In this document: positions 1,128 to 44,939 of the stretch, piece by piece
How the letters are laid out: each line of letters opens with the position of its first letter
How positions within the stretch are numbered: the first letter of the stretch is position 1
Source of the DNA: a virus
Lineage: Duplodnaviria; Caudoviricetes
Virus record (IMG/VR): IMGVR_UViG_3300048577_000585
Location: 1-46,124 of that record
Reading direction: 5' to 3' (one strand)
Length of the DNA stretch: 46,124 nt
Program-made: the position numbers and the translations under genes
The notes under the pieces: model-generated
Seen by the model: only the letters and a program-made list of their open reading frames with translations
Told to the model about the DNA's origin: nothing
Databases searched by the model: none

Positions 1128-1133
1128 ACATAT

Positions 1134-1182: not shown

Positions 1183-1211
1183 AAGTTAAAACGGCTGTTC
1201 CAGTTACGGCC

Positions 1212-2378: not shown

Positions 2379-2599
2379 TGGTGATTCCTCCAAAACTTCC
2401 GCAACTTCACTCGCTGTACTGTTTATCGCGCACATATTGATTTAAAATCATACTTACAAGGTCTAATATTTACTATGCTGTAAATTATTGTTACTGCTTT
2501 GTAAAAATTCATGAATTAGATTATGTTAATTGATATTGCCGGATTCAGGTGTAAAATGGGGAATATGGTAAAGAGATGCGGCACGATATGGAGGATTAT

Positions 2600-17370: not shown

Positions 17371-18000
17371 ATGGGGGTGAGGACGATTGCCGCATATGAT
17401 TGGCCGAAGATCAAGGCCGAGTATATCTCGTCCTCAATTTCATTACGGGATTTAGCATCTAAACATGGCATTCCATTCCCCACCGTAAGGGACAGAGCAA
17501 AGCGGGAAGGGTGGACAGCGGAGCGTGACGCGTTACGTAACAAGATTGTGTCGCGCACGTTACAGAAAACTGCAGAGAAAGTGTCGACCAAAATTGCCGC
17601 TGGACTCGATAAGGAATACGCCATTGCGGACAAGCTTGCCGACGTGCTTGTCCGAGCCCTGGCAGATGATAAGCAGTTCAACCGGCATATCGTCAACCAG
17701 AAGATGCGCATCGACAAGATTGAAATCGGTACAGCCACCGAGAAGATATATGACAAGCTCGACATGGCTGCCGTTGCCCAGGCCGTCAAATCGCTGCAGG
17801 GCATAGAGACAACCAAGCGCCGCATCAAGGGCATTCTGACCGAGGCAGAGCGCCAGCATTATGACATCGAGCGTGAGCGCCTTGACCTGGAAAAGAAGAA
17901 GGCCGACCGGGGCGACGCGGATGAAGGGGAACACGGCGTTGTTGTGCTGCCCGATATAATCCCAGAACCGGACGAACCGGCGGGTGACGACGATGCCTAA
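17371..18000 (+). CDS. terS: Terminase small subunit (possible ATT start at 17386)
   Basis: YDWPKIKAEY..SLRDLASKHGIPFPTVRDRAKREGW HTH, directly upstream of TerL; GGGGGTGA precedes ATT 17386. Confidence 0.8.
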   Translation: MGVRTIAAYDWPKIKAEYISSSISLRDLASKHGIPFPTVRDRAKREGWTAERDALRNKIVSRTLQKTAEKVSTKIAAGLDKEYAIADKLADVLVRALADDKQFNRHIVNQKMRIDKIEIGTATEKIYDKLDMAAVAQAVKSLQGIETTKRRIKGILTEAERQHYDIERERLDLEKKKADRGDADEGEHGVVVLPDIIPEPDEPAGDDDA

Positions 18001-22824: not shown

Positions 22825-22849
22825 TGCTCCCCTCGGAAAGGGGAATAAA

Positions 22850-24793: not shown

Positions 24794-25048
24794 ATGAAAA
24801 ACCTGAAATTGTTCCCGGTGGATTTGACTATTCACCAGGTTAGAGCGATATCCACACCCGACGAGGACGGCGCGATTGACTACGTCTGCAATACAACGGA
24901 CGCTATGTCCACATGGCCGGACGCTGATCAGTGTGGCGCTGGCAGCATGATGACAATCGTCGACGAGACTGTCACGCCGCATCGGATTATCGGCATCGGC
25001 TGGTTTGACGGACTCGCCTGGGCGCTTCCGCAGGGGGTGAATCTGTAA
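24794..25048 (+). CDS. 84-aa virion protein with the putative Prp-cleavage leader
   Basis: AAGGAGG RBS; N-terminus MKNLKLFPVDLTIHQ resembles the scaffold and capsid leaders. Confidence 0.75.
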   Translation: MKNLKLFPVDLTIHQVRAISTPDEDGAIDYVCNTTDAMSTWPDADQCGAGSMMTIVDETVTPHRIIGIGWFDGLAWALPQGVNL

Positions 25049-26412
25049 TGCCGAAAGTAAAAGACAAACAAGCTCGGCTGCAGGGCGCGATTAATGGTGC
25101 GGCAATTAGCGAATTGGTGGACGGATATTTCTATAATTCCTGGGAAATCGGCGCCCTCCACACCGGCACTGGAGCGGACTACGCATCGACCACGCGCGTC
25201 AGAACGCCGTATATTTTCGTAAAAAAGGGAACACGGATAACCTTTAACGAGAAAAACATCATGGGCGGTCTTTTCATTTGCATATATACCCTAAACAAAA
25301 CCTATAAAAGCGGCAGCGGGTACTTCCAGGAGTATTTTGCCGAAGACGACTGCTATCTTAGGCTTACGAGCCGTTATCTTGACGACAGAACAATCACTGA
25401 CGCTTCGGCGTTTAATAACATCGTCAAGATTGAGGAAAAAGCCGCCGGTGTTCCGTTAGCTAAACCATACATCAGCGGCGACTTCAATAAGCTGTTTATA
25501 TCTGATGAGTGGACTAGGATTACAGGGGCGGCAATGACGGCTTCAACTATAACGGACGTATATGCAGGTTGGGAGACATTACGCCTGGCGAATACCGGCA
25601 GCATAACTCGGACGTTGCTTGGCAAAGGCGGCAACGCCAGCAATGTGGCAGATGCCGCCTTAGATATATATGAGTATACAATTTCACCGTCCGAGAACGG
25701 CGAAGGGACAGTGGCGAAAAAGTTGATCCCGCCTTATTTGGTGCTCATAACGGCAAATATGCACGGCGATGAGAAAACCACGACCTGGCAACTGCTTGAT
25801 TTCTTTACGCAAATGTATGCAAAGCTGGCTACTGATGAAACTATGGCTGCGCTGAAGTCAAGTGTGAAGTTTAAGATTATCCCGACTGTCAATCCCGGCG
25901 GTTATAATGCCAACACCAGAAATAATCTTCACGGTGTCAATCTTAACCGGAACTTCGACTATTTGTTCAGCTCGGCAACAGACGCAGACAAGGGCGTGGC
26001 TCCGTACTCAGAGCTTGAGTCGATGATCGTTAAGAACTGGCTTGCCGCAAACCAAGATGCCATAATGTATATCGATTTCCATAACATGAGCATCGATGAC
26101 GAAAATCTTTCATACATCAACTCACCGAACCGTGATATCCTACGGGTTTACTCCAGCGTTATCCGTCGGATGTCTGATGTTTGGAAGCGCCGTGGTATTT
26201 CGTACAGCGCCAATGTAGCTTATGGCTTTTTAGCAAATGATCAGTGGCCAATGGCTTGCCAGGACGCGTACTTCAATCATGGTATTACATACTCAACTAT
26301 CCTAGAGATTATACATACATACGGTACCCAGTATAGTGCCGATGTGCTCAGGATGGGGACGGAATTGTTCGGAAACTTCCTGTTCTCCATGCTGGATTTC
26401 ATTAGCCGTTAA
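25048..26412 (+). CDS. M14 zinc carboxypeptidase-domain protein, probably virion-associated
   Basis: HGDE, NPGG, TRNNLHGVNLNRNF, SELE, IDFH and TILE motifs; N-terminal beta-rich fibre-like region; TAATG coupling to the 84-aa gene. Confidence 0.85.
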   Translation: MPKVKDKQARLQGAINGAAISELVDGYFYNSWEIGALHTGTGADYASTTRVRTPYIFVKKGTRITFNEKNIMGGLFICIYTLNKTYKSGSGYFQEYFAEDDCYLRLTSRYLDDRTITDASAFNNIVKIEEKAAGVPLAKPYISGDFNKLFISDEWTRITGAAMTASTITDVYAGWETLRLANTGSITRTLLGKGGNASNVADAALDIYEYTISPSENGEGTVAKKLIPPYLVLITANMHGDEKTTTWQLLDFFTQMYAKLATDETMAALKSSVKFKIIPTVNPGGYNANTRNNLHGVNLNRNFDYLFSSATDADKGVAPYSELESMIVKNWLAANQDAIMYIDFHNMSIDDENLSYINSPNRDILRVYSSVIRRMSDVWKRRGISYSANVAYGFLANDQWPMACQDAYFNHGITYSTILEIIHTYGTQYSADVLRMGTELFGNFLFSMLDFISR

Positions 26413-26424
26413 AAACGCATATTT

Positions 26425-27510
26425 TTATTTCCGAAACACTTCACACAGTACATCGTCTGTTAAATCTCCAAAAACGGGCCCGTTTGTATATTGTAAAAAG
26501 TCTAGTTGAGGTGATTCAAGGTTCGCTTCAATTAAAACCGGCTCCCCGTCTTTGCCAACAGAGATATCCCAGCCAATAAGTTTATTGTAGGATAGACGGG
26601 GGGCTTGGCTTTTAACAAGATTAAGGATCTTATCAAACGAAGGGATTTCGTAATTTTCAAAAACAAACCCTTGAGGATGACGATCATGTTGAGTGCCGTC
26701 AGCGCTATATGCTTTGCTTTTTAAGTGGCCATCAGAGGTGATGCCGCAAACAATACCGCCAGAACTTGCATTGTCAACGATGCTATTGTTAACACCCATT
26801 CTTAAAACGTGCGATAATATATGCACTTTATTATTTAGGATTAAGGAAACCACGCGAATAGTATTTATCGATGATTGGTGAATAGCACTCATGCTTTGAT
26901 GTTGTTTAATTACCTCCTGCACGATGAATGATGGCACTGAGCTATAATCCTCAAAGGCCTTAATCAAATCGTTGCGGTCTTCGCAGTTAACAAGAGAAAC
27001 CTTTTTGCCGCCGTGTGTGTCGAGAGAAGGCTTGAAAATAACAGAATCGTGACGCTGACACAAATCAACGGCAGCTTCCAAAGATATTATTCGGAAGTCA
27101 TTATCAAGGTATAACCCATTGCTCTTGTGAACAATAGAATCTGGAGTCTTGCAGTCAAACAACAACGGGAAAAACGATTTATTTGCAAGAGGTGATTTTA
27201 GCTTATTAAAGTATGGGTTGATTACAGCATAATACAAATCATCCGGTATGTATCTACAGTCGAAGATACCGGTCACGGAGGTATACAGCTGATGTGAATC
27301 CAATCGAAAATTTTGGGTATAAGGCTTCCAATATTCTCTGATCTGGGATACTTGGTCTCTGCTTAAGACGTTTTGTCTGTCTTCAATTCTTTTTCTAACT
27401 ATCTTTCGGAAAAAATGGGTCATACGAATACGGTATAAATTATCAGGAGCTTTGTTAACGAAACCAACGACATTTTTATTAAAGAATTCTCGCAATCCCC
27501 GTTGATTCAC
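26425..27510 (-). CDS. Sugar-transfer-associated ATP-grasp ligase (moron)
   Basis: KPSLDTHGGK, IVQEVIKQH..SSINTIRV, LRMG..VDNASSGG, IGWDISV...VLIEAN; visibly AT-richer, opposite strand, AT-rich promoter region 27530-27570. Confidence 0.85.
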   Translation of the reverse strand: MNQRGLREFFNKNVVGFVNKAPDNLYRIRMTHFFRKIVRKRIEDRQNVLSRDQVSQIREYWKPYTQNFRLDSHQLYTSVTGIFDCRYIPDDLYYAVINPYFNKLKSPLANKSFFPLLFDCKTPDSIVHKSNGLYLDNDFRIISLEAAVDLCQRHDSVIFKPSLDTHGGKKVSLVNCEDRNDLIKAFEDYSSVPSFIVQEVIKQHQSMSAIHQSSINTIRVVSLILNNKVHILSHVLRMGVNNSIVDNASSGGIVCGITSDGHLKSKAYSADGTQHDRHPQGFVFENYEIPSFDKILNLVKSQAPRLSYNKLIGWDISVGKDGEPVLIEANLESPQLDFLQYTNGPVFGDLTDDVLCEVFRK

Positions 27511-31372: not shown

Positions 31373-32794
31373 ATGGGGTATTCATGGTACAGCAGCGATG
31401 ACGATTATGATAAGGACACAGATTATCAGTCGCTGATTGACACAGCCGTGTCACAGGGCGACTTATATGGCGCCGCAAAATACGAGCAGCGGCGTAACGC
31501 GAAGATTAAAGGTGAGGGGCGCGACGAGGAGCAGACAAACAACTATTCCGATTATTTGAACATGTACGGTGACGGCAGTGAGAAGGGCCAGACACTGTAC
31601 GCCAGGAACGCTTCCGCTCCGGCCAATGCAGGCTATACAAGCCCCTACGCTGCCGATATCGCGGCGCTCATTGATAAGTTTAAGAATTACGGCCCTTACG
31701 ATTCGGCGGCAGACCCGACGTTCCAGAAGCAACTGGCCGGGTTCACCGAGCAGTACACGAAGCGGGGCCAGCGCTCCATGCAGGACACCATCGGGCAGGT
31801 GTCGGCGCGTACAGGCGGCCTTGCCAGTTCCTACGCTTCTTCTGCCGGTGCCGATGCGTATAACTATTATATGGGGCAGTTGGGCGACAAGGAACTTGAC
31901 CTGCTGGCCCAGGGTGAACAGCGGCATGCTGCCGGGAAGAACGATATTATGAACCTTCTGGGTATTTACACGAATCAGGACGCCACCGCATATGGCCGGT
32001 ACAGAGATACCGTCGGTGATGCCCGGTACGAGCAGGAATACGCCGACACCATGGAGCAGCGTGATCTTGAAAACAGTCGGTGGAATATGCAGTGGAATAA
32101 TGAGCTCGGGCGACAGGGTGTTGAGGACGAGCGTTGGAATACGCAGTACGGAGACACGCGGAACGACGCCAACTTCACGAAGGCGCAGACGCTGTTGTCG
32201 ATGGGCTTCTCAACGACCGAAATTGCCGGGTATCTCGGCATCACCCAGGAGCAGGCCGACCAATACGCCGCGATGGTACAGTCTGGCATGAAGGCCGACA
32301 TCGACGCGCGTAACCGGTCGAACACTGGCAGTTCTGGCGGTGGGGGCGGCGGCAAGCCGAGGTTGACAGCCGCACAGGTGAACGCAGCTATCAAGGCAGG
32401 GACGGTCACCAGTGATGTGCTGGCCGCGTATGAGTATTACTATGGCGCTCCGTACACCGGCGGCAACGGCGGCGACGAGGACATGGGTATCATAGATAAG
32501 ATGCTCAGTTACGGCAACGATGCCCGGGCGAAAGAATACCTCTATCAGCAGTCCGGTCTTTCTGATAGCGAAACGGACGAGCTGTGGTACGAATATGAAA
32601 CCCAGCGTGACACAGTGCCGAATGGGGCGCTCACGAAGAAACAGTGGGAGTCAATAAAGGTGTGGGCCGGTTCCCATGGCGGCAAATTCGGCGGCATGCT
32701 CGGCGACATCGACCCGGACGAGGCGGCTGCCGCAGCATACGATTCATACGAAGAATACCTTGCCGACTTTAGACAGTTCGCTCGCGGACAGTAG
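31373..32794 (+). CDS. Probable internal virion/DNA-ejection protein
   Basis: GGAGG RBS; helical, Q/Y/G-rich, GGLASSYASSAG; located before the giant gene as for podoviral ejection proteins. Confidence 0.6.
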   Translation: MGYSWYSSDDDYDKDTDYQSLIDTAVSQGDLYGAAKYEQRRNAKIKGEGRDEEQTNNYSDYLNMYGDGSEKGQTLYARNASAPANAGYTSPYAADIAALIDKFKNYGPYDSAADPTFQKQLAGFTEQYTKRGQRSMQDTIGQVSARTGGLASSYASSAGADAYNYYMGQLGDKELDLLAQGEQRHAAGKNDIMNLLGIYTNQDATAYGRYRDTVGDARYEQEYADTMEQRDLENSRWNMQWNNELGRQGVEDERWNTQYGDTRNDANFTKAQTLLSMGFSTTEIAGYLGITQEQADQYAAMVQSGMKADIDARNRSNTGSSGGGGGGKPRLTAAQVNAAIKAGTVTSDVLAAYEYYYGAPYTGGNGGDEDMGIIDKMLSYGNDARAKEYLYQQSGLSDSETDELWYEYETQRDTVPNGALTKKQWESIKVWAGSHGGKFGGMLGDIDPDEAAAAAYDSYEEYLADFRQFARGQ

Positions 32795-32805
32795 GGAGGG
32801 CGATT

Positions 32806-35800
32806 ATGGCAAAATCATTCGCACAGTGGAAAGCTGAGCAGAATAAAAATAGACAGCAGACGTCCGTGACGCAGAGGGAGCAGCCGAAGTCTTTCGCATC
32901 ATGGGCACAAAAGAACCGGGGTATTCAGTCGACCCCGGATTTCGCTGCACGTCCGGTAAAGCCGTTTACGCCGCCGGAATGGATGACCACCAGAATGGAC
33001 GCCGCGGCTGATCCGGCGGTGTTGGAGGCGCAGCGGACCCTTGCCGCTGACCGGGCCGCGTTCAAGCCGCAGAACGCCACCGATATAGGGTTTTACAATC
33101 GTCCGACAGAAGGGTATGTTAACACCCTCCGTTCGGACCTGGACGAGTTACGCCGTCAGCGGCAGGACATGGGCGGTCCGTTAATGCCGGACGCGTCGCA
33201 GATGGACGCATATTCTGATCTGACCTTCAAGATTGACGCGCTACAGGATAACCTTGATATGTACGGCACCGACCTCTACAACACCAACCGGGCGGCGACA
33301 ATGCGGAGTATTGAGAGCGCAGCCGGGAGCGGCACGTTTGACGGCAAGTCAATCACCGACACCCGCGGTATTTATGGTATAGCGAAATACCTGACCGATG
33401 CCGAGTATAAGGCCGAAACGGACAAGGCGCTGATGGATAATGCCAAGCGGCGCGGGACCGCCGGTACGGGTTTGTGGGAAGTGCCGTCCGTATTCGGTGA
33501 TGCCGCCGACATGCAGCGATACGGCGAAGCTTCCACTATGACCAATCAGGAAAAAGAAACGCTGCTGTATTATCTGTCCATCGGTGACGATGAGACAGCC
33601 CAGCAATATTACGACGCGATTCAGCGTGACCTGCAGAAAAGGTATGCCGGTGAGCAATCCGACTTCACGCAGGACTTCACGAAAGAACACCCTGTCACCG
33701 GCACCTTGATGAACATCACGGCATCGCTCGGCCAGGGTGCGGGGTTTGTATCGAACACCGCGCAGAACCTCAAGAATCAGCTTGGCTCGGGCGAATACGA
33801 GCCTATCAACCTTTATAATATGGCGAACGCACCCACACGGATGGTAAACGACACGACGGAGGCGCTGACGGAAGATATCAAGTCGCCTTTCGGCAAGCTG
33901 CTTGCACAAACAGGCTTGTCAATCGGCCAATTCGCCGCCACGCTGCCGTTTGGCTCAACCGGCGCCCTCGCCATTATGGGGACGGCATCGGCGAATCAGT
34001 ATGCCTATGACGCACTGGAGCGCGGCGTACCGGCACATGAAGCCATGGCTGGTGCTACGGCGGCCGGCGTGATCGAAGTGCTGACAGAGAAGATCCCGCT
34101 GGACGAGCTGTTTAAGATCGCCGATGTAACAACATTTGCGCAGGCCTTAAAGGCTGTGGGTAAACAAGCCGGGATGGAAGGCATAGAGGAAATTGTCAAC
34201 TCCTACGCAAATTCCATTTCGGACCAGATTATCACCGGCGAAAAGTCTCAATTTAATCAGCTTGTGGCATCATATCAGGCAGACGGCATGACCCGCGACG
34301 AAGCGTATCGGAAGGCCATGCTCGACACATACGTCATGCAGCCGCTTCAAGCCGGTTTTGGCGGTTTCCTTTCTGGAGGCTTTATTGGCGGCGGCATGAC
34401 GGCGCTCAACTTCGCGCCGCAGCCGAAAACGCGCGTAGATCTGGCGACCGAACTTGCCAACAGACATCCGGACGCTGAACCGGACTTCGCCGCCATGGTT
34501 GAAGCGGCGGTGCAGCCGACGGAGCCGCTGCCTGTCCAACCAGCAGAAGCCCAGCCGCCCGAGCCGATTCAGCCGCCCACCGTCCCGGATTCATCCTATA
34601 TCGAAAAGGCGCAGGTTGATATTTTCCGTAAGGCCGGTCAATCAATGGTCCCTCTATCTTCTATCGTGCAGCAGGATGAGGAAGTCACGGACGCGCAGAT
34701 GACCGCATACGATGAAGGCATGGCCGAGGCGGTCAAAAAGATGCAAGCCGAGAATGCGGCGAAGAAACCCACAGAAAGCAAGCCGGTTGTGGAAAAGGTT
34801 GAGGCCCCTATTGAAATTCCGGCACAAAAGGTAGATAATGGCACCGTAAGCAAGCCGGTACACGAACAGATTGCAAATTCTGTATATAAATATGTCAGCG
34901 AGGGCCAGACCTTCACCGCTGAACGGCTGTTCGAAATTGCCGACAAAGCGTATGGCGGGACAATGGCTGCCGGGAAATATACGGTCAAGGACGCTTATGA
35001 TGCGGTCGAGTTGGCCGTGAACAAGTGGCTCGAAAAGTATGCGAAGTCCATGAACGGCGATAAGGTAACAGCCAGATCGGCAATCCCGGCCTTTGAGAAG
35101 CTTTTAGCCGCGCTCCCGACGCAGACGAAGCGTACCGCTGAGATGGAGGAATATCAGCAGTTTTCCACGCCTCCGAATATCGCTTATCTGGCGGCTTGGG
35201 CAGCCGGTATCACATCAAACGATACCGTCCTGGAGCCGAGCGCCGGTATTGGCGGCTTGGCTGTATTCCCCAAGGCGTGGGGCGCGAAGGTTTATGCGAA
35301 TGAATTGTCACCCCGCCGTCTTGAGTTCTTGAAGTCCATGGGTTTCACTGGGACTTTCAATTTCAACGCCGAGCAGATTGACAACCTGCTACCAGACGAC
35401 GTGAAGCCGAGCGTCGTGCTGATGAACCCGCCTTTCTCGTCTGCGGCCGGACGGATGACCACGAAAGCCACGGCCAACGCGAAACGGCATATCGAACAGG
35501 CGCTTAATCGGCTTGAACCGAACGGGCGGCTTGTCGCTATCGTTGGGCGCGGCATGGCAGACGACTCGCCGTCGTTCTCATCCTGGTGGAACGATCTGAA
35601 GCAGAAATATAACATCCGGGCGAACGTCCGCATTGACGGAAAGAACTATAAGAAATACGGCACGAATTTTGACATTCAGCTTGTGGTGATTGATAAAACC
35701 GGTGCGACTGAAAAGACCATAACCGGCGAATATACCGACCTTACACAGATACCTACAGTATTGGAGGGAATCAGAAATGATCGGGCAAGAGCAGAAAATA

Positions 35801-38800
35801 GCGCAGGTTCTTCAGCAGAACAAAACGCCGCTGTCTCTGGCGCTCCGGCAGCTGATACAGGAGCCGTCCGGGACGGAACTGTATCTGATAGAAGCGATTC
35901 AGGAAGCGTTGAACCTGCGGGTAGAACAGACAATAAACCTGGAAGCCGCCCTGACAACGCAAAATCTCCTGGTGCCGCTGTCCGTGGAGTTAAGCCCGGA
36001 ACAGGCATACAACCTACTGACATCGACGCAGGACGTGGAGGTAACGGACGAGTACCTTCTGTCATTAATACAACAGGAACCCAGCAGGGAAGCGAAGCTG
36101 TTACTTCTTCTGCAGGAAGTGCAGTCGAATCTGCAGGACAACGGATTCAACTTGACGCCAAGCAGCCCGGAAGCCAGAGAATAGCCGACACTCAAAAACT
36201 GATTGAAAACGCCGATAACGTATATTCCGAATACGCGCCGAAAAAGCTGTCTGTAAAGGGTGCCAAAGCGCATCCTGCAAAGCTGGTCGAGAGCGCGGCA
36301 ATGGCCGCCGTCGATCCACCTGATATTACCTATACGCCGAACCTCCCGCAGAGCCTTATTTCAAGCGGAGCTCTCTCGATAGCTCAGATTGAAAATATCG
36401 TTTATGCGGGGCAAAGCCATGCTCAGATGCTGAAAAACGGCACACGCCGCGGGTATTTCATCGGCGACGGCACCGGCGTCGGAAAAGGGCGCCAGATTGC
36501 CGGTATAATTCTGGACAACATGCGGCAGGGGCGGACAAAAGCCGTCTGGATAAGCAAAAATAATAGCCTGACAGAGGATGCCCGGCGTGACTGGTTGGAC
36601 ATTGGCGGCAAAAAGGACGATATCGTTGAGCTGGGCAAAGTGAAGCTCAACCAGAAGATATCCGCCGAGCGTGGCATTTTGTTCTCCACCTTCGGCACAA
36701 TCAAGACCGAGAAAGCCGACGGCTCCAGAATCAAACAGATTGAGGAATGGCTCGGGAAAGACTTCGACGGCGTGATTGTCTTTGACGAAGCTCACAACAT
36801 GGCAAACTCGATTGCATCCGAGGGTAAGCGGGGCAAGCAGAAGGCGGCGCAGATGGCTCTGGCCGGTATCAAGCTGCAGGAGGCTTTCCCTCAAGCCCGA
36901 ATCGTGTACGCGTCCGCAACGGGCGCGACGAAAATATCCGACTATGCATACCTGACCCGGCTCGGTCTGTGGGGCGAGGGGACAGCTTTCAACAGCGTCA
37001 ACGACTTCATCGAAAAAATCAGCGCCGGCGGCCTGGCCGCTATGGAACTGGTGGCGCGGGACATGAAGGCAATGGGCGTTTACATGGCCCGGAGCATTTC
37101 ATATGACGATGTTTCGTATGATACCATCACGCACGCGCTGACGCCGGTGCAGAATGAGATCTATAACACGATGTCCCGGGCGTGGCAGAAGGTTCTACAG
37201 AATATCAACAGCGTGCTGGAAACAACCAATGCCAACAAGAACAGCATGGCGAAATCGTTCGCCAGAAGTCAATTCTACGGAGCAATGCAGCGGTTCTATA
37301 ACCAGATCATCACGTCGATGTCCATGCCCTCCGTTATTTCTGATATTAAGAAGGAACTGGACAAAGGTAATTCAATCGTTATTCAGCTCGTCAACACGAA
37401 CCAAGCAGCCATGGAGCGTCGTATTGACGAGATGGATGAAAACCAAAGCCTTGACGATATTGACCTGACGCCTTCCGACACTTTGAAGCAGTATCTTGAA
37501 AAGAGCTTCCCGATTTATGAGTATGAGGAATACCAGGACGAAAAAGGCAATACACTGTCCAGACTCGTCACTGACGGAGAGGGTAAGCCGGTGATAAGCC
37601 GGGAGGCTGTGCGGATCCGCGATGAACTTGTCGCCGAACTTGACCAAATGAAAGTACCCGACGGCCCCCTGGAATTGCTCATTGATACATTCGGGGCCGA
37701 CCAGGTTGCTGAAGTCACAGGCCGGACGCGCCGCATCGTCCAGAAAAAGGACGATGACGGACAGATGCGCCGCGTCATCGAGCCGCGCACAACGCACATG
37801 GCCCTTGCCGACGCGCAGTTGTTCCAGGACGGTAAGAAGCGAATCCTTGTATTCTCCGACGCTGGCGGTACCGGCAAGAGCTACCACGCTGACCGCCGGG
37901 CGAAGAATCAGCAGAAGCGCATACATTACCTCCTACAGCCGGGTTGGAACGCCTCCAGCGCCACACAGGGCTTTGGCCGGACGCACAGGAGCAACCAAGT
38001 GTCAGCGCCGACATTCCGTCTTGTCACAACGGACATCATGGGGCAGAAGCGTTTTACATCGACTATCGCACGCAGGCTTGACCAACTCGGCGCGTTGACA
38101 AAGGGCCAGAGGCAAGCCGGTAGCGGCGTGTTTTCGCAGAAGGACAATCTCGAAAGCGATATCGCAAAGGACGCGCTGGCAAAGTACTATCGGAGTGTCC
38201 CGGTGGATTCGCTCATTAAGATGGGTCTTTACGACAAAATGTACGACCAGTACGGCATATGGAAGCCCGACGAAAACACCATCCGAGATATGGGCCTGTT
38301 CCTCAATCGTATCCTTTCGCTGGAAATTGACGAGCAGAACAGTATTTTCAACGGCTTTTTCACGGCGTTTGAAACGTCGCTTGACCGGGCAATCGAAGCG
38401 GGTACCGTCGACATGGGGCTTGAGAATGTCGTTGCCGATAAAATTGAAGTCAAGGACGAACTAACCGTCCGCAAGTATGACGGCGGTGCCGAAACGAAAT
38501 ATGTGCAGATGACCGCCTTCCGCAAGCCGCAGATTATGTCATATAAGCAAATTGAGGACTACCTTCCGAATTTCAAAGGGTTAGTAAGGATGGAAAGCGG
38601 CGAGGTCCGAGCCGTCTACCAGATGGCCAACAAAACCGAAAATACAGGCGAGATAGTCGAGCAATACCGGCTTCAGTCGCCGGTGCTGACAACAAAATCG
38701 GTGTATGTGAAGAAGACGCTGGACGAGAAAACCACTCCGATCCCGAAAAAAGAGTGGATGTCTGCATGGAACGAGCAGACCGCAAAGGCGCCGGAATTCA

Positions 38801-41800
38801 CGGAGCAGACGCTTCACCTTCTGACCGGCACGCTCCTTCCTATATGGAACCGGCTGCCGACAGAAAACACCCGGGTAATGCGCGTCATCACCAGCGACGG
38901 GCGGCAGTATCTTGGCCGCCTCATCAAAAACGATCAGATTGACAGCGTTCTCAAGGTGTTCGGAGTGGGCCGGACGAAGGAAGTGTATACGCCGGAGGAT
39001 GTCCACGCCAAGATTCTCGGCGATGGGTATGAAGCGGTGCTTGAAGCCGATAAGCAGAAGCTTGTCCGGCGGCGCGTCAGCGGAGAAAACCGCATTGAGA
39101 TTGTCGGTAATAACATATGGTTTTATGCCCGTTTCCCTGGGGTTATATCTGAAAAGATCAACTATACATTCCGATATTTTATCCCGACCAACAGCCAGGG
39201 CGTCCAGATCATTAAGCGGATCATGGACAACAACCCGATTGTCGAGTTGGTTAAGGGGACTCGGGCCGACGATGAGGATGGTGTCCGGGCAAAAATATTA
39301 CCGGCAGCCGCGCAAAACGCGACGCCGGTTAAGCTCAAGGAGTATTCAGAACATCAAAAAACAAATTGGCAAGGAAGCAAGAAGATCATCCTTTACGAAA
39401 ACCGCGCACAGTTAGAGGACTTCATAGAAACAGCCATTTCAGATGGTAGTTATCAAAGAAAGATGTATTTCGGCATGATACCAGATGCGCTGTCTATGCG
39501 GGTTAAGTCGGAAACTGGTATCGATATTTCGGAATACAACTTGGTACTGCGGGCAGATGAAATCAGGAAGATACTCCGCGACCATGGCGACGAATTAAAA
39601 GAAGCGAAACACGGACAGAGAGCGATCAACCGCGATGATTTTATCTCCATCCCGGAGATTGTTGTCAACCCTGACAGTATCGAGTTGTCCAACAAACTAT
39701 ACGATGGAAAACCGACGCTTCTTTTCAAGAAGGTGCTAAACGGTAAGACCGTGGCGGTGGCACACGCATCTATTCAAACGCACGACTTGACGGTTCAAAC
39801 AATGTATGCAGGTAAGAATAAAGGAAGCCTTGCTACTACGCCAAGTGGGGTTTCCCCCTTCTCGCATACGCCCGAAGCGCTTAGTAGTACAGCTTCCAAC
39901 GAAAATGTATCACAATCCGGTGATGGTGTCAAGTACGCCCTAACATCCTCCGAATGGGACGTCCCGCAAAACACTACGCCGGCCGCCGTCCGAAACGTCA
40001 TGAGCCTTGCGAACATGATAAATAAGATCAGGCACGACTTCGGGATATCCATAACAACCGGCAATATCCGTAAACAGGGTGCCGCCGGTGTGTATCTGGA
40101 GAAGCCCGGCACGATCAGGACGCGCATTGCCAACGACCTGTTGACCGTGACACATGAACTGGGACATCATTTTGATGAGTTGTACGGTCTGTCCGATGCG
40201 TCAGACGCGGTTCTGACGGAGATAACCGGCAATCTGCCGCAGGATACAAAGGACCGGTATACGGACGAGCAGCTACCCGGTGAAGGTGTTGCCGAGTTTG
40301 TCAGCCGGTATCTGAGCGACAAAGCGAAGGCCGAGGAAGATTATCCACTGTTTTATCCGTGGTTTACGCAGAAGCTGTTGAACGAGGAATTGATGCTCCT
40401 TGATGGGTTGGCAGACGAGGTTAACAATTACCTGTCCGCAGATCTCTCGGCACGGTCCAGCGCCGCGGTCAACATGCCGGGTGACACTCGCGATTTCCGT
40501 ACGCTCGGCGAAAAAGCGGGTGAAAAGGCAGACGCGGTATATCAAGCCAACGTTGACAGCAACCACGGCATTAAACGGTTCGCCGACTTCGCGGACGATC
40601 AGAACGTGTACAGGGTCGCCACAAACGCCGCATATGCTGACAGCGTGGCCAGCGCCAATATCATGTACAACCTGACCGACATCAACGGCAAAAAGGTTGG
40701 ACTCGGGCTGAAGCAAGCCCTTCAGGGTATCAACGTCCGCAACAGGCAGGAGTTCCGCGACTTCAATGAATACTTAAAAGTGAAGCACGGCCCGGAGCGT
40801 CTCAAAGAAGGATTAATGGTATCCTCCGACCCGATGTTGAATAAAGCCGACTTCATGAACTTCCGCGCGAAGGAGTTGGAGCATAAATACCCTAAATTCG
40901 CAGAAGCGGCGCAGCGCGTCTACACGTTCAATCAACAGCTCCTACAGACATGGGCGGTTGACACCGGCTTGATAGCTCCTGAGACGGCGCAGAAGTGGTT
41001 CGAGCGGTGGCAGTATTATGTACCATTCAACCGCGTTATGGACGACGACAGCGCGGGACCGAGCGTGAAGCGCGGGTTTGCGAACCAGCGGAGCCCGTTC
41101 AAGAAAGCGGTCGGCAGCGGTAGAGATATCATAGCCCCGATCGAAAGCATTGCCAGGAACGCGACGAAGCTCATCCAGGCGGCGATCAAAAACAATGTCA
41201 TGGTGGAAGTGACAACACTGGCCGATAAAAACAACGGCTCCGGCGCCTTTCTTGAAAAGGTACCGGCCCCGTTGACCGTGACGAAGTATAACGCCGTCGA
41301 ATTGAAAAAGAAGCTCAAAGTTGAACTGATGGAAGGGCTGCCGGATGAAGCGGTCGACGCAGCATTTGAGATTGTGAACAGCACCGTTGATGACATCCTC
41401 ATCCAGTATGGCCGGGGCAAGGCGTTCGGTGACACTGTAACGGTCATGAAGGATGGCAAACCGCAGTTCTGGCAGATCAACGACGCCATGATGCTCGAAT
41501 CCGTAACGAGCATGACCCCGGCGCGTATGCCGGCCTTCATCGAGGCTTACGGACGGATTACCCGGTTTATCACAAGCAACATCACAGGGAATAACATACT
41601 CTGGTCGATTTTCTCCAACCTTCCCCGCGATATTGCGACCTTCTGGAACTACTCCGAGAATAAGAACCCCATAACTATACTCGGAAATATCGCCAGTGGG
41701 TATGCCAACAATCTGAAAGCCTATACCGGGAAAGGCCGCATAGATCCGTACTACCTGGAGTATATGGCCATGGGCGGCGGGAGCAGCAACTCACTTCTGA

Positions 41801-43371
41801 CAGCCGACCGCGACAACGCGGCCCGAGCCATGGACCGACTGTTTGCGTACAATTCGGCGAAGTACCTGAATCCGCTGGAGTGGGTGGAGGCGTTCTCCAA
41901 CGCCATTGAGGGCGGCCCCCGGTTTGCTTATTACCGCATGCGGCGAATGGCCGGGAAAACCACGTCGGAAGCATTCTATGATGCGATGGAGATCACGACG
42001 AATTTCAAGCGCCACGGTACACAATCTCAGCAGATCAATAAAATTGTGCCGTTCTACAACGCCAGCGTCCAGGGCCTTGACCGGTTCGCCCGGTGGGTTA
42101 CAGCTTCCGACGCGCCGAAGGATATGCGCGGCAAGGTCATAGCAAAACGGTGGAGCGTTTATATCGCGTCCGGGTTGTTTATGGCACTCGCTCAGGTTCT
42201 GGCGGCCAGACGGCGGGACGAGGAAGGTTATGAGCAGCTCTCCGCATATGTGAAGAACAATTATCTCAACATTCCTCTCGGTAACGGCAAGTTCTTCTCT
42301 ATCCCGAAACCCCGGGAGCTGGGCGCTTTAAGCACTACCTTTGAGCGCATCCTCGAACAATACATGCTCGGCAATGATAAGGCATTCAACAACTACGATG
42401 AGTATATTACATCACAATTCCTGCCGCCGGTCATGTCCGGTGTGGCAAAAGCCGGTGTCGGGGCTGTGTCGGGCGATAGCGAAAAGATCATGCAGGGCGG
42501 CAGTGAGGCGCTTGGCGATTTCGGACTTGCGGGTACGCTGGTGGCCATGCTTGCCAATCGTGACTTCCGGGGCAATCCTATCGTCTCAAAAGGCATGATG
42601 ATGCTGGAGCCCAGGGCGCAGTTCAACAACCGGACTAGCAAGATTGCCATTGCCGTGGGGAACGCAACTAACATGAGCCCGCTTATGATCGACTATTTCT
42701 TAACCAGCACGCTCGGCGGCTTCTGGAAGGTGGTCAAATCACTCTGGCCCGAAAATAAAAGCGAGCGCGATTTAACGCTCGGCATAGAGGCGTCGTACAT
42801 AAAAGACAGCCGGTATTCGACCGATATCGTGAACGACTTCTACGACCAGCGGGATAAGGCTGACAAGTTCCATGCGACGTATTCCGAGAACGCCGAGTAT
42901 AAGATCGCAGCCAACGATTACGACGACATGGCGACATTCTACAGCCGCTACAACGCGTTGGCAAAGAGCAGCGCGGACACGCTCGAAAACCTGCAGACCC
43001 GGCAGATGGTCATTGAGATGCTTGAACAGTTCGTTAACGAGCAGGAGAGCGGTCAAAGGACCACAGCCAAAAAGGCGCTGGACGAGTTGGCGGCTTCCGT
43101 GATGAGCACGACATTCTATCCCCAGGTTATGCCGCAGCAGCTTACCATAGGCGAAGGGGGCAAAAAGGAAACCCATCAGCTGACGGCTGCACAGTATGTT
43201 GAGTATCAGACTGTTTATCTGGACTATTACTGGCAAGAAGTCACGCAGCGACTCAACCGGAACTACCGGACAGATGAGGAAAAAGCAAAGGCTGTTACCG
43301 CCGGGAAGGCGACGGCGGCCGAGTTGGCGAAGCGATATATGGCGAAGAAACTCGGTGTCCGATATTTCTAA
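32806..43371 (+). CDS. 3521-aa polyvalent (DarB-like) protein: N6A-MTase, strawberry-notch SF2 helicase, PBECR-like RNase, HExxH metallopeptidase, LPD38-like C-terminus
   Basis: LEPSAGIG (~35230) and NPPF (~35425); GDGTGVGKGR (~36462), DEAH, YASAT, QGFGRTHRSNQ; HGDELKEAKHGQRAI..IPEIVVNPD (~39580-39680); HELGH (40153); IPKPRELG (~42300). Confidence 0.88.
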   Translation: MAKSFAQWKAEQNKNRQQTSVTQREQPKSFASWAQKNRGIQSTPDFAARPVKPFTPPEWMTTRMDAAADPAVLEAQRTLAADRAAFKPQNATDIGFYNRPTEGYVNTLRSDLDELRRQRQDMGGPLMPDASQMDAYSDLTFKIDALQDNLDMYGTDLYNTNRAATMRSIESAAGSGTFDGKSITDTRGIYGIAKYLTDAEYKAETDKALMDNAKRRGTAGTGLWEVPSVFGDAADMQRYGEASTMTNQEKETLLYYLSIGDDETAQQYYDAIQRDLQKRYAGEQSDFTQDFTKEHPVTGTLMNITASLGQGAGFVSNTAQNLKNQLGSGEYEPINLYNMANAPTRMVNDTTEALTEDIKSPFGKLLAQTGLSIGQFAATLPFGSTGALAIMGTASANQYAYDALERGVPAHEAMAGATAAGVIEVLTEKIPLDELFKIADVTTFAQALKAVGKQAGMEGIEEIVNSYANSISDQIITGEKSQFNQLVASYQADGMTRDEAYRKAMLDTYVMQPLQAGFGGFLSGGFIGGGMTALNFAPQPKTRVDLATELANRHPDAEPDFAAMVEAAVQPTEPLPVQPAEAQPPEPIQPPTVPDSSYIEKAQVDIFRKAGQSMVPLSSIVQQDEEVTDAQMTAYDEGMAEAVKKMQAENAAKKPTESKPVVEKVEAPIEIPAQKVDNGTVSKPVHEQIANSVYKYVSEGQTFTAERLFEIADKAYGGTMAAGKYTVKDAYDAVELAVNKWLEKYAKSMNGDKVTARSAIPAFEKLLAALPTQTKRTAEMEEYQQFSTPPNIAYLAAWAAGITSNDTVLEPSAGIGGLAVFPKAWGAKVYANELSPRRLEFLKSMGFTGTFNFNAEQIDNLLPDDVKPSVVLMNPPFSSAAGRMTTKATANAKRHIEQALNRLEPNGRLVAIVGRGMADDSPSFSSWWNDLKQKYNIRANVRIDGKNYKKYGTNFDIQLVVIDKTGATEKTITGEYTDLTQIPTVLEGIRNDRARAENSAGSSAEQNAAVSGAPAADTGAVRDGTVSDRSDSGSVEPAGRTDNKPGSRPDNAKSPGAAVRGVKPGTGIQPTDIDAGRGGNGRVPSVINTTGTQQGSEAVTSSAGSAVESAGQRIQLDAKQPGSQRIADTQKLIENADNVYSEYAPKKLSVKGAKAHPAKLVESAAMAAVDPPDITYTPNLPQSLISSGALSIAQIENIVYAGQSHAQMLKNGTRRGYFIGDGTGVGKGRQIAGIILDNMRQGRTKAVWISKNNSLTEDARRDWLDIGGKKDDIVELGKVKLNQKISAERGILFSTFGTIKTEKADGSRIKQIEEWLGKDFDGVIVFDEAHNMANSIASEGKRGKQKAAQMALAGIKLQEAFPQARIVYASATGATKISDYAYLTRLGLWGEGTAFNSVNDFIEKISAGGLAAMELVARDMKAMGVYMARSISYDDVSYDTITHALTPVQNEIYNTMSRAWQKVLQNINSVLETTNANKNSMAKSFARSQFYGAMQRFYNQIITSMSMPSVISDIKKELDKGNSIVIQLVNTNQAAMERRIDEMDENQSLDDIDLTPSDTLKQYLEKSFPIYEYEEYQDEKGNTLSRLVTDGEGKPVISREAVRIRDELVAELDQMKVPDGPLELLIDTFGADQVAEVTGRTRRIVQKKDDDGQMRRVIEPRTTHMALADAQLFQDGKKRILVFSDAGGTGKSYHADRRAKNQQKRIHYLLQPGWNASSATQGFGRTHRSNQVSAPTFRLVTTDIMGQKRFTSTIARRLDQLGALTKGQRQAGSGVFSQKDNLESDIAKDALAKYYRSVPVDSLIKMGLYDKMYDQYGIWKPDENTIRDMGLFLNRILSLEIDEQNSIFNGFFTAFETSLDRAIEAGTVDMGLENVVADKIEVKDELTVRKYDGGAETKYVQMTAFRKPQIMSYKQIEDYLPNFKGLVRMESGEVRAVYQMANKTENTGEIVEQYRLQSPVLTTKSVYVKKTLDEKTTPIPKKEWMSAWNEQTAKAPEFTEQTLHLLTGTLLPIWNRLPTENTRVMRVITSDGRQYLGRLIKNDQIDSVLKVFGVGRTKEVYTPEDVHAKILGDGYEAVLEADKQKLVRRRVSGENRIEIVGNNIWFYARFPGVISEKINYTFRYFIPTNSQGVQIIKRIMDNNPIVELVKGTRADDEDGVRAKILPAAAQNATPVKLKEYSEHQKTNWQGSKKIILYENRAQLEDFIETAISDGSYQRKMYFGMIPDALSMRVKSETGIDISEYNLVLRADEIRKILRDHGDELKEAKHGQRAINRDDFISIPEIVVNPDSIELSNKLYDGKPTLLFKKVLNGKTVAVAHASIQTHDLTVQTMYAGKNKGSLATTPSGVSPFSHTPEALSSTASNENVSQSGDGVKYALTSSEWDVPQNTTPAAVRNVMSLANMINKIRHDFGISITTGNIRKQGAAGVYLEKPGTIRTRIANDLLTVTHELGHHFDELYGLSDASDAVLTEITGNLPQDTKDRYTDEQLPGEGVAEFVSRYLSDKAKAEEDYPLFYPWFTQKLLNEELMLLDGLADEVNNYLSADLSARSSAAVNMPGDTRDFRTLGEKAGEKADAVYQANVDSNHGIKRFADFADDQNVYRVATNAAYADSVASANIMYNLTDINGKKVGLGLKQALQGINVRNRQEFRDFNEYLKVKHGPERLKEGLMVSSDPMLNKADFMNFRAKELEHKYPKFAEAAQRVYTFNQQLLQTWAVDTGLIAPETAQKWFERWQYYVPFNRVMDDDSAGPSVKRGFANQRSPFKKAVGSGRDIIAPIESIARNATKLIQAAIKNNVMVEVTTLADKNNGSGAFLEKVPAPLTVTKYNAVELKKKLKVELMEGLPDEAVDAAFEIVNSTVDDILIQYGRGKAFGDTVTVMKDGKPQFWQINDAMMLESVTSMTPARMPAFIEAYGRITRFITSNITGNNILWSIFSNLPRDIATFWNYSENKNPITILGNIASGYANNLKAYTGKGRIDPYYLEYMAMGGGSSNSLLTADRDNAARAMDRLFAYNSAKYLNPLEWVEAFSNAIEGGPRFAYYRMRRMAGKTTSEAFYDAMEITTNFKRHGTQSQQINKIVPFYNASVQGLDRFARWVTASDAPKDMRGKVIAKRWSVYIASGLFMALAQVLAARRRDEEGYEQLSAYVKNNYLNIPLGNGKFFSIPKPRELGALSTTFERILEQYMLGNDKAFNNYDEYITSQFLPPVMSGVAKAGVGAVSGDSEKIMQGGSEALGDFGLAGTLVAMLANRDFRGNPIVSKGMMMLEPRAQFNNRTSKIAIAVGNATNMSPLMIDYFLTSTLGGFWKVVKSLWPENKSERDLTLGIEASYIKDSRYSTDIVNDFYDQRDKADKFHATYSENAEYKIAANDYDDMATFYSRYNALAKSSADTLENLQTRQMVIEMLEQFVNEQESGQRTTAKKALDELAASVMSTTFYPQVMPQQLTIGEGGKKETHQLTAAQYVEYQTVYLDYYWQEVTQRLNRNYRTDEEKAKAVTAGKATAAELAKRYMAKKLGVRYF
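35777..36184 (+). CDS. Overprinted 135-aa gene in the +1 frame of the giant ORF
   Basis: GGAGG at 35763-35767 and ATG 35777; L/E/Q-rich helical sequence while the host frame here is a low-complexity G/A/S/R/T linker. Confidence 0.65.
   Translation: MIGQEQKIAQVLQQNKTPLSLALRQLIQEPSGTELYLIEAIQEALNLRVEQTINLEAALTTQNLLVPLSVELSPEQAYNLLTSTQDVEVTDEYLLSLIQQEPSREAKLLLLLQEVQSNLQDNGFNLTPSSPEARE
39814..39897 (-). ncRNA. Putative antisense sRNA of about 85 nt embedded just after the PBECR-like domain
   Basis: Minus-strand TTGACA(39932-39927)-17-TGnTACATT(39909-39904); closing stems GGAAGC/GCTTCC and CTACTA/TAGTAG; followed by TTTATTCTT. Confidence 0.6.
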
Positions 43372-43420: not shown

Positions 43421-43450
43421 GAAGTTATAAGACGGAAGCAGGTGGACGAT

Positions 43451-43798
43451 ATGTGGGAAAAAATCATCTTAACTGTTGTTGGTGTTGTCGCTGGTGCTAT
43501 TGTGGCCGCAGCAGTCGCAAAAATTAAAGCGACGGCGAAAGGTCGCAGTATTAAAGCAATCAAGAGCCAAATCGCTGACATCGAAAAGTGGCGCGAATTT
43601 GCCCAAGAGGATATCGACTGCAGCACCGAAGAGCGCCGTATTGTCCTCCGCGCACTTCTGGCGGCGTTATACGGATTGAGAGAACAGGGCTGCAACGGCC
43701 CGGTCAACAAAGGAATTGAGATGCTTGAACAGTATCTGGACACGCAAGCGCACAAGAATAGATCGTACATAAAGGAAATGAAGGAGGAAGTATCATGA
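43451..43798 (+). CDS. Holin/antiholin-like membrane protein
   Basis: N-terminal TM segment, coiled coil, GCNGPV motif; first gene of the lysis cassette. Confidence 0.65.
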   Translation: MWEKIILTVVGVVAGAIVAAAVAKIKATAKGRSIKAIKSQIADIEKWREFAQEDIDCSTEERRIVLRALLAALYGLREQGCNGPVNKGIEMLEQYLDTQAHKNRSYIKEMKEEVS

Positions 43799-44187
43799 AT
43801 TGGTCCGAAATGCTTGACCTTATCGCTCCGTATGTTGTACCGGCAACGGTTACGGCTGTCGGCGCTTTGCTGGCGGCACTGTGGAGCTGGGTGAGGTCGA
43901 AAACGAAGAATGCCAAACTGGATAAGTACATTGACCGGGCGAACGACGCCATTTTGACGGCGGTTGCCGAGACGATGCAGACGTTCGTCACGACAATGAA
44001 GAACAACGGCACCTGGGATGCGGATGCTGCAGCGAAAGCTTTCGAAATGTCCATGATAAGGGCGAAGGAAATTATGGGTGCTGCAGCTCTCCAGGCGCTG
44101 CCGGAGGTCATTGGTGACGTTGAGAAGTGGTTGACGGCCAAGATCGAGGCGGCGACGCTCACCACGAAGGCGGCGATTGCCGCATGA
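43795..44187 (+). CDS. Holin (LL-H-like)
   Basis: One N-terminal TM segment, AVAETMQTFV, KIEAA; upstream of the endolysin. Confidence 0.7.
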   Translation: MNWSEMLDLIAPYVVPATVTAVGALLAALWSWVRSKTKNAKLDKYIDRANDAILTAVAETMQTFVTTMKNNGTWDADAAAKAFEMSMIRAKEIMGAAALQALPEVIGDVEKWLTAKIEAATLTTKAAIAA

Positions 44188-44939
44188 TTATCGACAAGAG
44201 CCTGCCGACCGACCGGAGCAACTACTCCAAGTCCTCCGGGCGAAAGGTCAAATACATCGTTATCCACTACACCGGAGGCACCGGTACAGCCAAGGCGAAC
44301 GCGATGTACTATCAGGGCAAGAACCGGAACGCTTCCGCACATTTCTTTGTCGGCCATGCTTCTGAGGGCGCCAAAATCTATCAAACTGTCAATCCCGCTG
44401 ATGTCGCATGGCATTGCGGTACCACGGGCCGGTATTATAGTGATTGTCGGAACGCGACGAGCATCGGCATTGAAACGTGCTGCCACAACGATACGGCCAA
44501 CAAATCCGCAGCGTCAAAAGATTGGTATTTCGACGCCGAGACGGTTGACGCGCTGGTGGAACTGACCAAGGCGCTCATGGCCGAATACAATGTGCCGGTG
44601 GAGAATGTCATCCGCCACTACGATGTGACACATAAGGTCTGTCCGGCTCCTTGGGTGCATAACGAAGCTGCCTGGTTGTCCTTTAAGGCCCGGTTGGCCG
44701 GCGAAGCGACAATGCCGAAGCCGGTCGCGCAGATCCCGCCGACGGTCAAATTCGGCAGCCGCGGGGAACATATCAGAGCGCTTCAGAAGCTGCTTAATAA
44801 ACAGGGCTTCGACAGTGGAATCGTTGATGGCGTGTTCGGCAACACGACACTCGCCGCCGTAAAAACGTTCCAGTCAGTAAAGGGGCTCGTCGTAGACGGC
44901 ATCGTCGGCCCGGCAACCTGGAAGGTGCTGCTGGCGTAA
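44184..44939 (+). CDS. Endolysin: N-acetylmuramoyl-L-alanine amidase (Amidase_2) with PG-binding domain
   Basis: YIVIHYT, ASAHFFV, AWHCG, SIGIE, RHYDVTHKVCP; DGVFG..T..AVKTFQ..GLVVDGIVGPATW. Confidence 0.93.
   Translation: MIIDKSLPTDRSNYSKSSGRKVKYIVIHYTGGTGTAKANAMYYQGKNRNASAHFFVGHASEGAKIYQTVNPADVAWHCGTTGRYYSDCRNATSIGIETCCHNDTANKSAASKDWYFDAETVDALVELTKALMAEYNVPVENVIRHYDVTHKVCPAPWVHNEAAWLSFKARLAGEATMPKPVAQIPPTVKFGSRGEHIRALQKLLNKQGFDSGIVDGVFGNTTLAAVKTFQSVKGLVVDGIVGPATWKVLLA

Follow-up and report, generated by a model that had tools for sequence, protein, structure and literature searches.

A conserved minus-strand RNA element, predicted to be an antisense RNA gene, overlies linker codons behind the PBECR3 RNase-type domain of a giant prophage protein

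The window analysed here is the whole 46,124-nucleotide (nt) stretch of the IMG/VR record IMGVR_UViG_3300048577_000585 (Caudoviricetes), a provirus record with a completeness rating of 100%. We focused on its giant polyvalent-protein open reading frame (ORF), which contains a methyltransferase (MTase)-like region, an Sbno-type helicase (AAA_34 / Helicase_C_4), a PBECR3 domain, a HELGHH peptidase motif and LPD38, and on a predicted minus-strand RNA unit at 39932-39814, which occupies the codons for residues 2337-2376 directly 3′ of PBECR3. The founding paper describes polyvalent proteins as counter-defence arsenals, and PBECR domains as predicted colicin D-like RNases that are injected along with the DNA (PMC5512222). 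The features of the locus are as follows:

32806-43371, plus strand: giant polyvalent-protein ORF, 3521 amino acids (Pfam and ORF call)
39484..39822, plus strand: PBECR3 RNase-type domain, residues 2227-2339 (Pfam PF18812, 1e-16, 61.3 bits)
39927..39932, minus strand: -35 box TTGACA, opposite plus-strand codons G-V-K
39904..39912, minus strand: extended -10 element TGaTACATT (-10 box TACATT at 39909-39904), opposite plus-strand codons N-V-S
39897, minus strand: predicted transcription start G39897, the first base of P1, placed 7 nt past the -10 box from the spacing
39823..39897, minus strand: structured RNA core of 75 nt with four helices (covariance and folding)
39897-39891 with 39829-39823, minus strand: P1, outer stem of 7 bp, 5′ side GGAAGCU
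39887-39883 with 39837-39833, minus strand: P2, inner stem of 5 bp, 5′ side CUACU
39879-39869, minus strand: P3, near-invariant hairpin CGYUUCGRRCG
39867-39838, minus strand: P4, variable hairpin, GGGG/CCCC in the window
39814..39822, minus strand: U-rich tail UUUAUUCUU after P1, predicted 3′ end, opposite plus-strand codons K-N-K

The score of the PBECR3 domain stands against a curated cut-off of 30 for PF18812, which makes it a member of the family, and a six-frame search of the window record recovered it at 7.2e-20 and 66.4 bits. Its final strand, DLTVQTMY, ends at 39807, and AlphaFold, run with a 26-sequence alignment, gave the module a predicted local distance difference test (pLDDT) score above 90 as far as the QTMY strand. 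Because a fold search with this model returned weak RelE/BrnT/CDI-toxin-type rows and none at E <= 0.001, the domain call rests on Pfam. The minus-strand letters had been described in an earlier sequence-only reading, which pointed to a TTGACA-17-TGnTACATT promoter, a stem beginning at 39897 and a U-rich tract; all of them were found at their places, and the 17-nt spacer between the two boxes ends in TGA.

As seen in the single sequence, the fold of the unit is unremarkable and its promoter suggestive at most. The promoter scored 10/12 plus the TG extension, and across the giant ORF 8 promoter-like sites were counted where 7.0 ± 3.2 were expected, which is no enrichment. When the peptide was kept and the codons were redrawn from the giant ORF's own usage, a promoter of at least 10/12 arose in 6 of 2000 such resamples. 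The 88-nt fold reached -33.1 kcal/mol (z = -2.79 against dinucleotide shuffles), and the fold energy of the site ranked 37th of 1048 in the giant ORF. A simple terminator scan (G+C-rich hairpin plus T run) left the site uncalled because the stem before the U-tract, P1, closes a multi-branch structure, and an Rfam 15 covariance search gave no match overlapping 39814-39932 at E <= 10.

Since the single-sequence fold was not beyond chance, the matter of chance was decided by comparison with relatives. Proteins matching residues 2180-2480 numbered 238 at E <= 0.001, with 27 representatives less than 85% mutually identical, and the DNA of the relatives was taken from 22 loci on viral contigs and 26 in genomes, mostly metagenome-assembled genomes (MAGs) of Clostridia from gut and rumen. 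Two loci identical to the window (100%; L001 and L013) were uninformative, and a DNA-similarity search of phage and plasmid collections gave no match. The resulting codon alignment holds 36 distinct homologous DNAs at a protein identity of about 45%. In the 27 representatives the consensus past ...DLTVQTMY reads K-x-K-x-SLAT...T[PS]E[AT]..GT[AV]S..NSI......VN, and downstream of this linker motif the proteins diverge completely. The motif stands behind PBECR3 in all 120 of the closest giant proteins, with a second copy in 3 of them.

We then ran RNAalifold on the 36 minus-strand segments (alignment A3), which were derived from the PBECR3 peptide pattern. It returned 22 pairs with compensatory changes in 18, and 33-35 of 35-36 sequences had the outer and inner stems paired, GC, AU and GU replacing one another. 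Overall, 94.9% of the cells were paired, compared with 32-54% when the partners were slid, and 147 cells were changed on both sides, compared with 9-35 for slid partners; neither value was reached in 500 shuffles. The strand was also clear: G.U cells fit the minus strand in 125 cases and the plus strand in 5, and pairing fell from 94.9% on the minus strand to 79.3% on the plus strand. The transcription signals were kept as well. An exact -35 TTGACA was present in 19/36 sequences (at least 4/6 in 28/36) and a -10 TATACT in 19/36 (at least 4/6 to TATAAT in 32/36), the 17-nt spacer occurred in 35/36 and the TG extension in 15/36, and only L027 was without a promoter at the place. The distance from the -10 box to P1 was 6 nt in 36/36, and all 36 homologues carried 6-9 T within 10 nt past P1. 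The hairpin that the sequence-only reading had singled out is present in the window within 39867-39838, but its GGGG/CCCC sequence is not conserved, the P4 position being held by a variable hairpin; the promoter and covarying stem that it suggested looking for after PBECR domains elsewhere are conserved across these DNAs. Taken together, these comparisons make it very probable that an RNA-level element with conserved transcription signals on the minus strand is real.

The same constraint was read from the codons. Across 35 sequences, the mean third-position entropy was 1.60 bits in the PBECR3 domain (78 columns), 1.01 bits over the RNA plus promoter (40 columns) and 1.76 bits beyond the RNA (10 columns). 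Individual codons are frozen: Thr of 'TPE' is ACG in 35/35, the rare codon ATA encodes Ile of 'NSI' in 27/35, Val of 'VN' is GTC in 22/35 and Lys is AAA in 32/35. The residues 'NSI' correspond to the -10 box, which reads TATACT on the opposite strand, while 'xVN/K' corresponds to the -35 TTGACA and 'KxK' to the U-tract. Moreover, S covaries with A/T and N with V at the residue level because the base pair 39827/39893 is read through the genetic code. The peptide of the RNA region is predicted to be disordered (AlphaFold pLDDT 30-34). With third positions frozen and the structure covarying, the 'conserved linker motif' seen in hundreds of polyvalent proteins is, as judged from these alignments, the imprint of an RNA gene, whose RNA-level constraints dictate the linker peptide of the protein.

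We further studied how closely the RNA is linked to the RNase module. A search with the PBECR3 module alone (residues 2165-2334) gave 1375 representative clusters at E <= 0.001, and the best 149 proteins were examined. These held 148 complete domain matches, 140 of which were followed directly by the RNA-coded motif. Six of the remaining 8 proteins end within 45 residues, and 2 continue without the motif; since their RPKR and NVRN peptides look like the same DNA read out of frame, we infer that these two carry the RNA in another frame. Of the 142 cases in this clade that could be tested, 140 to 142 thus have the RNA together with the PBECR3 module. The sequence-only reading had held that the toxin domain travels with its own RNA, which stands for the self-contained unit directly behind the domain but not as an exclusive link, as described below.

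To look for copies elsewhere, we used a covariance model (R1) of 89 positions and 24 pairs. In the window it found one copy, at 39809-39900 on the minus strand, with 82.9 bits, and in the related loci it gave 48 matches of at least 47 bits in 46/58 loci plus the window, every one of them on the strand opposite to the protein match; of the 12 loci without a match, 11 share only the peptidase part and 1 is cut off. Several of these copies lie outside the training set of R1. In L059 (72.6 bits) and L060 (67.2 bits) the RNA is intact despite a broken frame, in L050 the RNA is intact and the ORF stops just past it, and in L045 a second copy lies behind ART-PolyVal (Pfam 3.6e-12) and before the PBECR3 module. 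At this last locus (740-828 and 1364-1464), and in proteins P0016 and P0066, two diverged RNA copies flank one PBECR3 module.

A protein-independent DNA pattern was also drawn from the RNA, with the P3 hairpin required. It matched 38 loci on viral contigs, 18 of them with an R1 match, and 121 on metagenome contigs, where 43 of the 80 listed loci that were searched had an R1 match. These 61 hits reduce to 39 distinct RNA sequences, 24 of which are not in a long ORF, with the following contexts:

11 of 39: embedded after a PBECR3-like domain
3 of 39: embedded after another domain (ART-PolyVal-like in L078, LPD3-like in L079, unknown in L069)
5 of 39: only about 22 residues of PBECR3 tail, then an upstream stop
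18 of 39: not in a long ORF
1 of 39: no frame open through the RNA
1 of 39: context undecidable

The RNA also stands behind LPD3-like domains in L135 and L149. In L186 a solo PBECR3 gene of 192 amino acids (1028-1603, minus strand) ends convergently inside the RNA, as does a solo LPD3 gene in L135. The L186 gene adjoins an ornithine/aspartate carbamoyltransferase gene, and its catalytic-strand motif is VKSMRS, not VQTMY. The five copies with a PBECR3 tail (L132, L139, L140, L145 and L160) are free cassettes in which about 22 PBECR3-tail codons are followed by the upstream stop, and they resemble captured pieces of polyvalent genes in non-phage surroundings, with VanZ, PT-HINT and ART-PolyVal neighbours. 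In G001 three tandem copies (C1:6051-6310; L101, L105 and L106, with 67.7, 66.2 and 20.9 bits) lie in the gap that separates the terminase (TerL) gene from the portal gene and are antisense to each of the two. The downstream pair abuts with no promoter in between and would be co-transcribed. The G003 copy has a perfect TTGACA-17-TATAAT promoter and extra terminators and lies just after a serine integrase on the same strand. In provirus G002 the copy has a zeta-toxin-like ORF on one side and hsdM on the other, with an AbiEi-like gene nearby; elsewhere, copies neighbour DUF4143, VanZ, SLH and metabolic genes.

The 22 copies outside long ORFs were aligned separately (A6, fitted to R1, with P3 required by the search pattern). 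They were paired in 91.1% of the cells, compared with 34-42% for slid partners, and showed 103 double changes, values that none of 500 shuffles reached. Promoter-like sites scoring at least 9 within 60 nt upstream were found for 11/22 of them, compared with 40/370 control windows. Within one bacterial family the RNA was found in 5/151 genomes searched, and in two of three new genomes of this family the copies stand behind diverged PBECR-like domains with good promoters (L116, L117; 33-36 bits). The copies are as diverged as the host proteins and are not near-identical. An Rfam 15 search of 20 related loci found no family that recurs at the RNA positions; stray rows at E > 7 overlapped the RNA in L014 (GcvB) and L046 (a snoRNA), at 18-19 bits against gathering thresholds of 42 and 90. 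P3 and the junction bases remained near-invariant even in very diverged copies. The P3 loop, YUUCGGR, was considered as a mimic of the tRNA-Arg(UCG) anticodon loop, tRNA-Arg being the target of colicin D; in 25 of 30 tRNA loci of two host MAGs no TCG anticodon was found, and the idea was dropped.

From these results we propose a function that is quite possible although short of probable: the minus-strand unit would give an antisense RNA of about 83 nt that silences the giant effector gene. The host sigma-A polymerase would transcribe the unit, starting near G39897 and ending in the U-tract. Because the promoter is near consensus, the RNA would be made in the lysogen and in early infection, ahead of the late giant gene. 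Being complementary over its whole length to the part of the giant mRNA that lies at the module's 3′ edge, it would form a duplex there, with pairing perhaps beginning at the UUCG loop of P3, which is of the YUNR type, a feature of antisense RNAs. The duplex would then trigger cleavage or decay of the giant message; this would keep the toxic injected effector from being made in the prophage, and superinfecting relatives would likewise have their version of the gene silenced. Free copies in prophages, defence islands and chromosomes may act in trans against effector-carrying phages. A wider reading, which we regard as doubtful, is that a large and undescribed antisense-RNA family in polyvalent linkers serves as the RNA antidote of RNase modules, the two forming one dual-coding toxin-neutraliser module that bacteria and rival prophages have captured, in some copies along with a remnant of the phage gene, to serve as RNA-based immunity, independent of CRISPR, against phages with such effectors. 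The asymmetry of the linkage, with PBECR3 nearly always followed by the RNA and the RNA often alone, could by analogy fit a toxin-immunity pair with orphan immunity genes, and co-descent would fit it too.

Several observations weigh against this antisense proposal. The fold of the window site is matched or bettered by 487 of the 2000 synonymous-codon resamples of the same peptide. The neutraliser view of the sequence-only reading is weakened in that the link to PBECR3 is not exclusive in the sequences compared, given the copies behind ART-PolyVal, LPD3-like and unknown domains and the free-standing ones, and therefore any neutraliser role would not be limited to one RNase in cis. A free copy without a cis target is present in G003, a 96% complete phage with neither a PF18812 match nor a giant ORF. 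PF18812 was sought in five records with non-PBECR contexts and found in none, with a positive control in the window record that worked; this absence says little outside G003, since the other four records are fragments. P3 and the junction vary less than a purely cis-antisense RNA would require, which hints at a protein partner or a shared target in trans. Moreover, 11/22 free copies lack a promoter-like site of at least 9 (the promoter of L082 lies beyond the 60-nt scan), and most of the promoterless ones belong to a GGRAGCAGUCCC subtype that often has no recognisable sigma-70 promoter. The sampling was biased as well, in that A3 came from the PBECR3 peptide pattern, the free copies needed P3 to be found and A6 was fitted to the model. 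Transcription of the unit is predicted from sequence signals. Any antisense action would have to take place mid-way in a 10.6-kb message, and the phage would have to escape its own RNA at induction, a need shared by STnc6030, a prophage antisense RNA taken up below. The GGRAGCAGUCCC subtype (L082, L084, L085, L122, L146 and L027) is richer in G+C, and other host promoters or read-through from upstream are possible there.

Other explanations were weighed against the same evidence. It is unlikely, in our view, that the RNA is instead a protein-binding antidote or decoy substrate that blocks the PBECR3 RNase in a type III-like manner, with orphan copies guarding prophage or host against injected effectors. 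Such a role would suit predicted RNases that enter with the DNA (PMC5512222), the near-obligate presence of the RNA after PBECR3 (140 to 142 of 142) together with its frequent occurrence elsewhere (24/39 not in a long ORF), and the orphan copies by an integrase in G003 and by the zeta-toxin-like gene, HsdM and AbiEi in G002. It would also suit the diverged RNAs carried by diverged PBECR-like domains (L116, L117), and it explains the orphan copies and the near-invariance of P3, which like that of the junction is expected of a protein recognition site, better than antisense pairing does. It sits poorly with the copies behind ART-PolyVal (the second copy of L045, and L078), LPD3-like (L079, L135, L149) and unknown (L069) domains and with a layout unlike that of type III loci (one unit, opposite strand, downstream), and the linkage itself could be plain co-descent of one module. 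Rather improbable is a small RNA that acts in trans for some other purpose, for instance as a decoy in counter-defence or to regulate messages of host or phage, and is lodged in linkers for lack of room in a compact phage genome, its antisense orientation being forced because a U-tract stem on the plus strand would terminate the late operon. The autonomous copies with their own promoter, terminators and varied contexts (G001, G003, DUF4143, VanZ, SLH) speak for it, as do sequence kept beyond the needs of pairing and the counter-defence content ascribed to polyvalent proteins in PMC5512222, but it gives no account of an RNA at the exact 3′ edge of every testable PBECR3 module in the clade. No candidate target or partner was found, and with 5/151 genomes of one family carrying the RNA, any host target would need to be general.

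That the element is a selfish or structural DNA cassette, either a palindromic mobile module inserted between domains without disturbing the frame or a site at which modules are shuffled, with the RNA incidental, is very improbable. Loci L022 and L079 do share the cassette and the downstream part while differing upstream, the 27 representatives diverge completely past it, fragments with about 22 PBECR3-tail residues occur in other contexts (5/39) and tandem copies exist. The G.U asymmetry of 125 versus 5, however, indicates selection on one RNA strand and not on duplex DNA; the promoter, spacing and U-tract are kept, the copies have diverged like host proteins, and neither the window nor any of five genomes searched holds more than one. 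There is hardly any room for the view that no RNA gene exists and that the peptide is kept for a protein reason (a cleavage site or an intramolecular inhibitor), or the plus strand for an mRNA fold that causes pausing or frameshifting. The presence of the motif in all 120 closest proteins, an A-rich K-x-K stretch before the plus-strand stem and a single-sequence fold that is not exceptional would agree with it; frozen third codon positions, a structure that persists despite a broken, shifted or missing frame, the worse pairing of the plus strand (79.3%) and the predicted disorder of the peptide do not. On the frozen third positions, the disorder and the structure kept without the frame, a protein-level explanation of the motif was rejected. 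A plus-strand frameshift signal was rejected separately, as there is no X_XXY_YYZ heptamer at 39811-39825, no spacer (the stem stands directly past the A-rich codons) and weaker pairing on the plus strand.

The antisense proposal can be set beside known kinds of RNA regulators. In type I toxin-antitoxin (TA) systems of Firmicutes (txpA/RatA, bsrG/SR4), a convergent antitoxin RNA with a strong promoter and terminator overlaps the 3′ end of the toxin gene on prophages, and the toxins are small membrane peptides. The unit described here is similarly a predicted small RNA with its own conserved promoter, convergent with and overlapping the effector coding region, and by position fully complementary to the toxin mRNA. 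However, it lies mid-ORF, and its partner is an RNase-type domain in a 3521-amino-acid protein or, in L186, a solo PBECR3 protein of 192 amino acids. Type III systems (ToxIN, CptIN, TenpIN) use as antitoxin a row of 34-45-nt repeats that precedes the toxin gene on its own strand and is processed by the toxin. By analogy, the RNA here would neutralise an endoribonuclease too, and tandem units are seen in some free copies and only there; by contrast, there is a single 83-nt unit at the locus, on the opposite strand and downstream, with no Rfam match. Lambda OOP and IS10 RNA-OUT are short, stable, structured antisense RNAs that have their own promoter in or beside the target gene and pair with the target. 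They overlap the end or start region of a gene in one element and are not a modular linker cassette, whereas the unit here has been inherited together with a protein domain in hundreds of diverged genes. RPE-type elements of Rickettsia occur as many similar copies per genome, inserted in unrelated genes; here the window and five genomes searched yielded a single copy each, with divergence that matches the host proteins.

A closer precedent is STnc6030 of the Salmonella prophage BTP1, an RNA that lies antisense to a gene for a DNA-injection protein, at its 3′ end, and excludes superinfecting BTP1; its report (Owen et al. 2020, PMC7067206) also mentions OOP. As described there, it resembles the unit here in coming from a prophage with P22-like virion genes and in lying antisense to a gene of the late region, and it is expressed in lysogeny with pairing to the late message as the proposed mode (PMC7067206). 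Unlike this unit, it is about 786 nt long, spans two genes and is not described there as a compact structured RNA (PMC7067206), and no family-wide covariation or link to a toxin domain is known for it. The unit here is about 83 nt with four helices, lies wholly in linker codons and belongs to a large family.

On novelty, the available parts of the founding polyvalent-protein paper make no mention of antisense, linker or noncoding elements (PMC5512222), nor does an RNA antitoxin appear in the available text of a preprint from 2026 about BECR RNases. A catalogue of structured RNAs in IMG/VR used only intergenic DNA for DNA viruses, as far as its available text states (PMC10690425), and embedded copies fall outside its scope because intergenic DNA alone was analysed; free copies might be among its unnamed candidates. 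The view of the sequence-only reading that the arrangement had not been described before agrees with Rfam 15 and with the literature searched, which did not extend to the supplements of that catalogue. In relation to known kinds, the unit would stand with phage antisense RNAs and type I-like antidotes, and what is notable, on the present alignments, is the complete dual coding and the modular linkage to an effector domain. A whole predicted transcription unit can overlie coding sequence and dictate the protein sequence, and searches for structured RNAs limited to intergenic DNA miss this class. The proposal also offers a testable candidate answer to how a phage tolerates BECR-type RNase effectors without an evident immunity protein, and RNA-based exclusion becomes testable through the copies that stand free or as fragments in prophages, defence islands and chromosomes, with STnc6030 as the experimentally shown precedent.

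With regard to such a protein, no immunity gene flanking the giant ORF had been seen in the sequence-only reading, and Pfam likewise gave no match for the neighbouring ORFs at 31373-32794, 43442-43798 and 43795-44187, although a lack of Pfam matches still leaves an immunity protein possible. The window further contains these genes:

1212-2435, minus strand: integrase
17984-19429: large terminase
19432-21282: P22-like portal
22784-24190: capsid gene
44127-44939: endolysin

Two genes that are unusual as prophage cargo lie among the virion genes: at 25048-26412 on the plus strand one that resembles M14 zinc carboxypeptidases, and convergent with it, at 26425-27510 on the minus strand, an ATP-grasp gene of the sugar-transfer-associated type. 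Within the giant ORF, a possible second antisense unit lies at 42752-42964 on the minus strand, right behind LPD38, with TTGCCA-17-TAGAAT (42964-42936) and two hairpin-plus-T-run sites (42823-42807 and 42781-42762); the peptide encoded there is unlike a low-complexity linker. The giant ORF has 11 terminator-like sites, every one of them on the minus strand, a bias that may reflect selection against plus-strand terminators together with Lys-rich A runs, or hidden antisense units.

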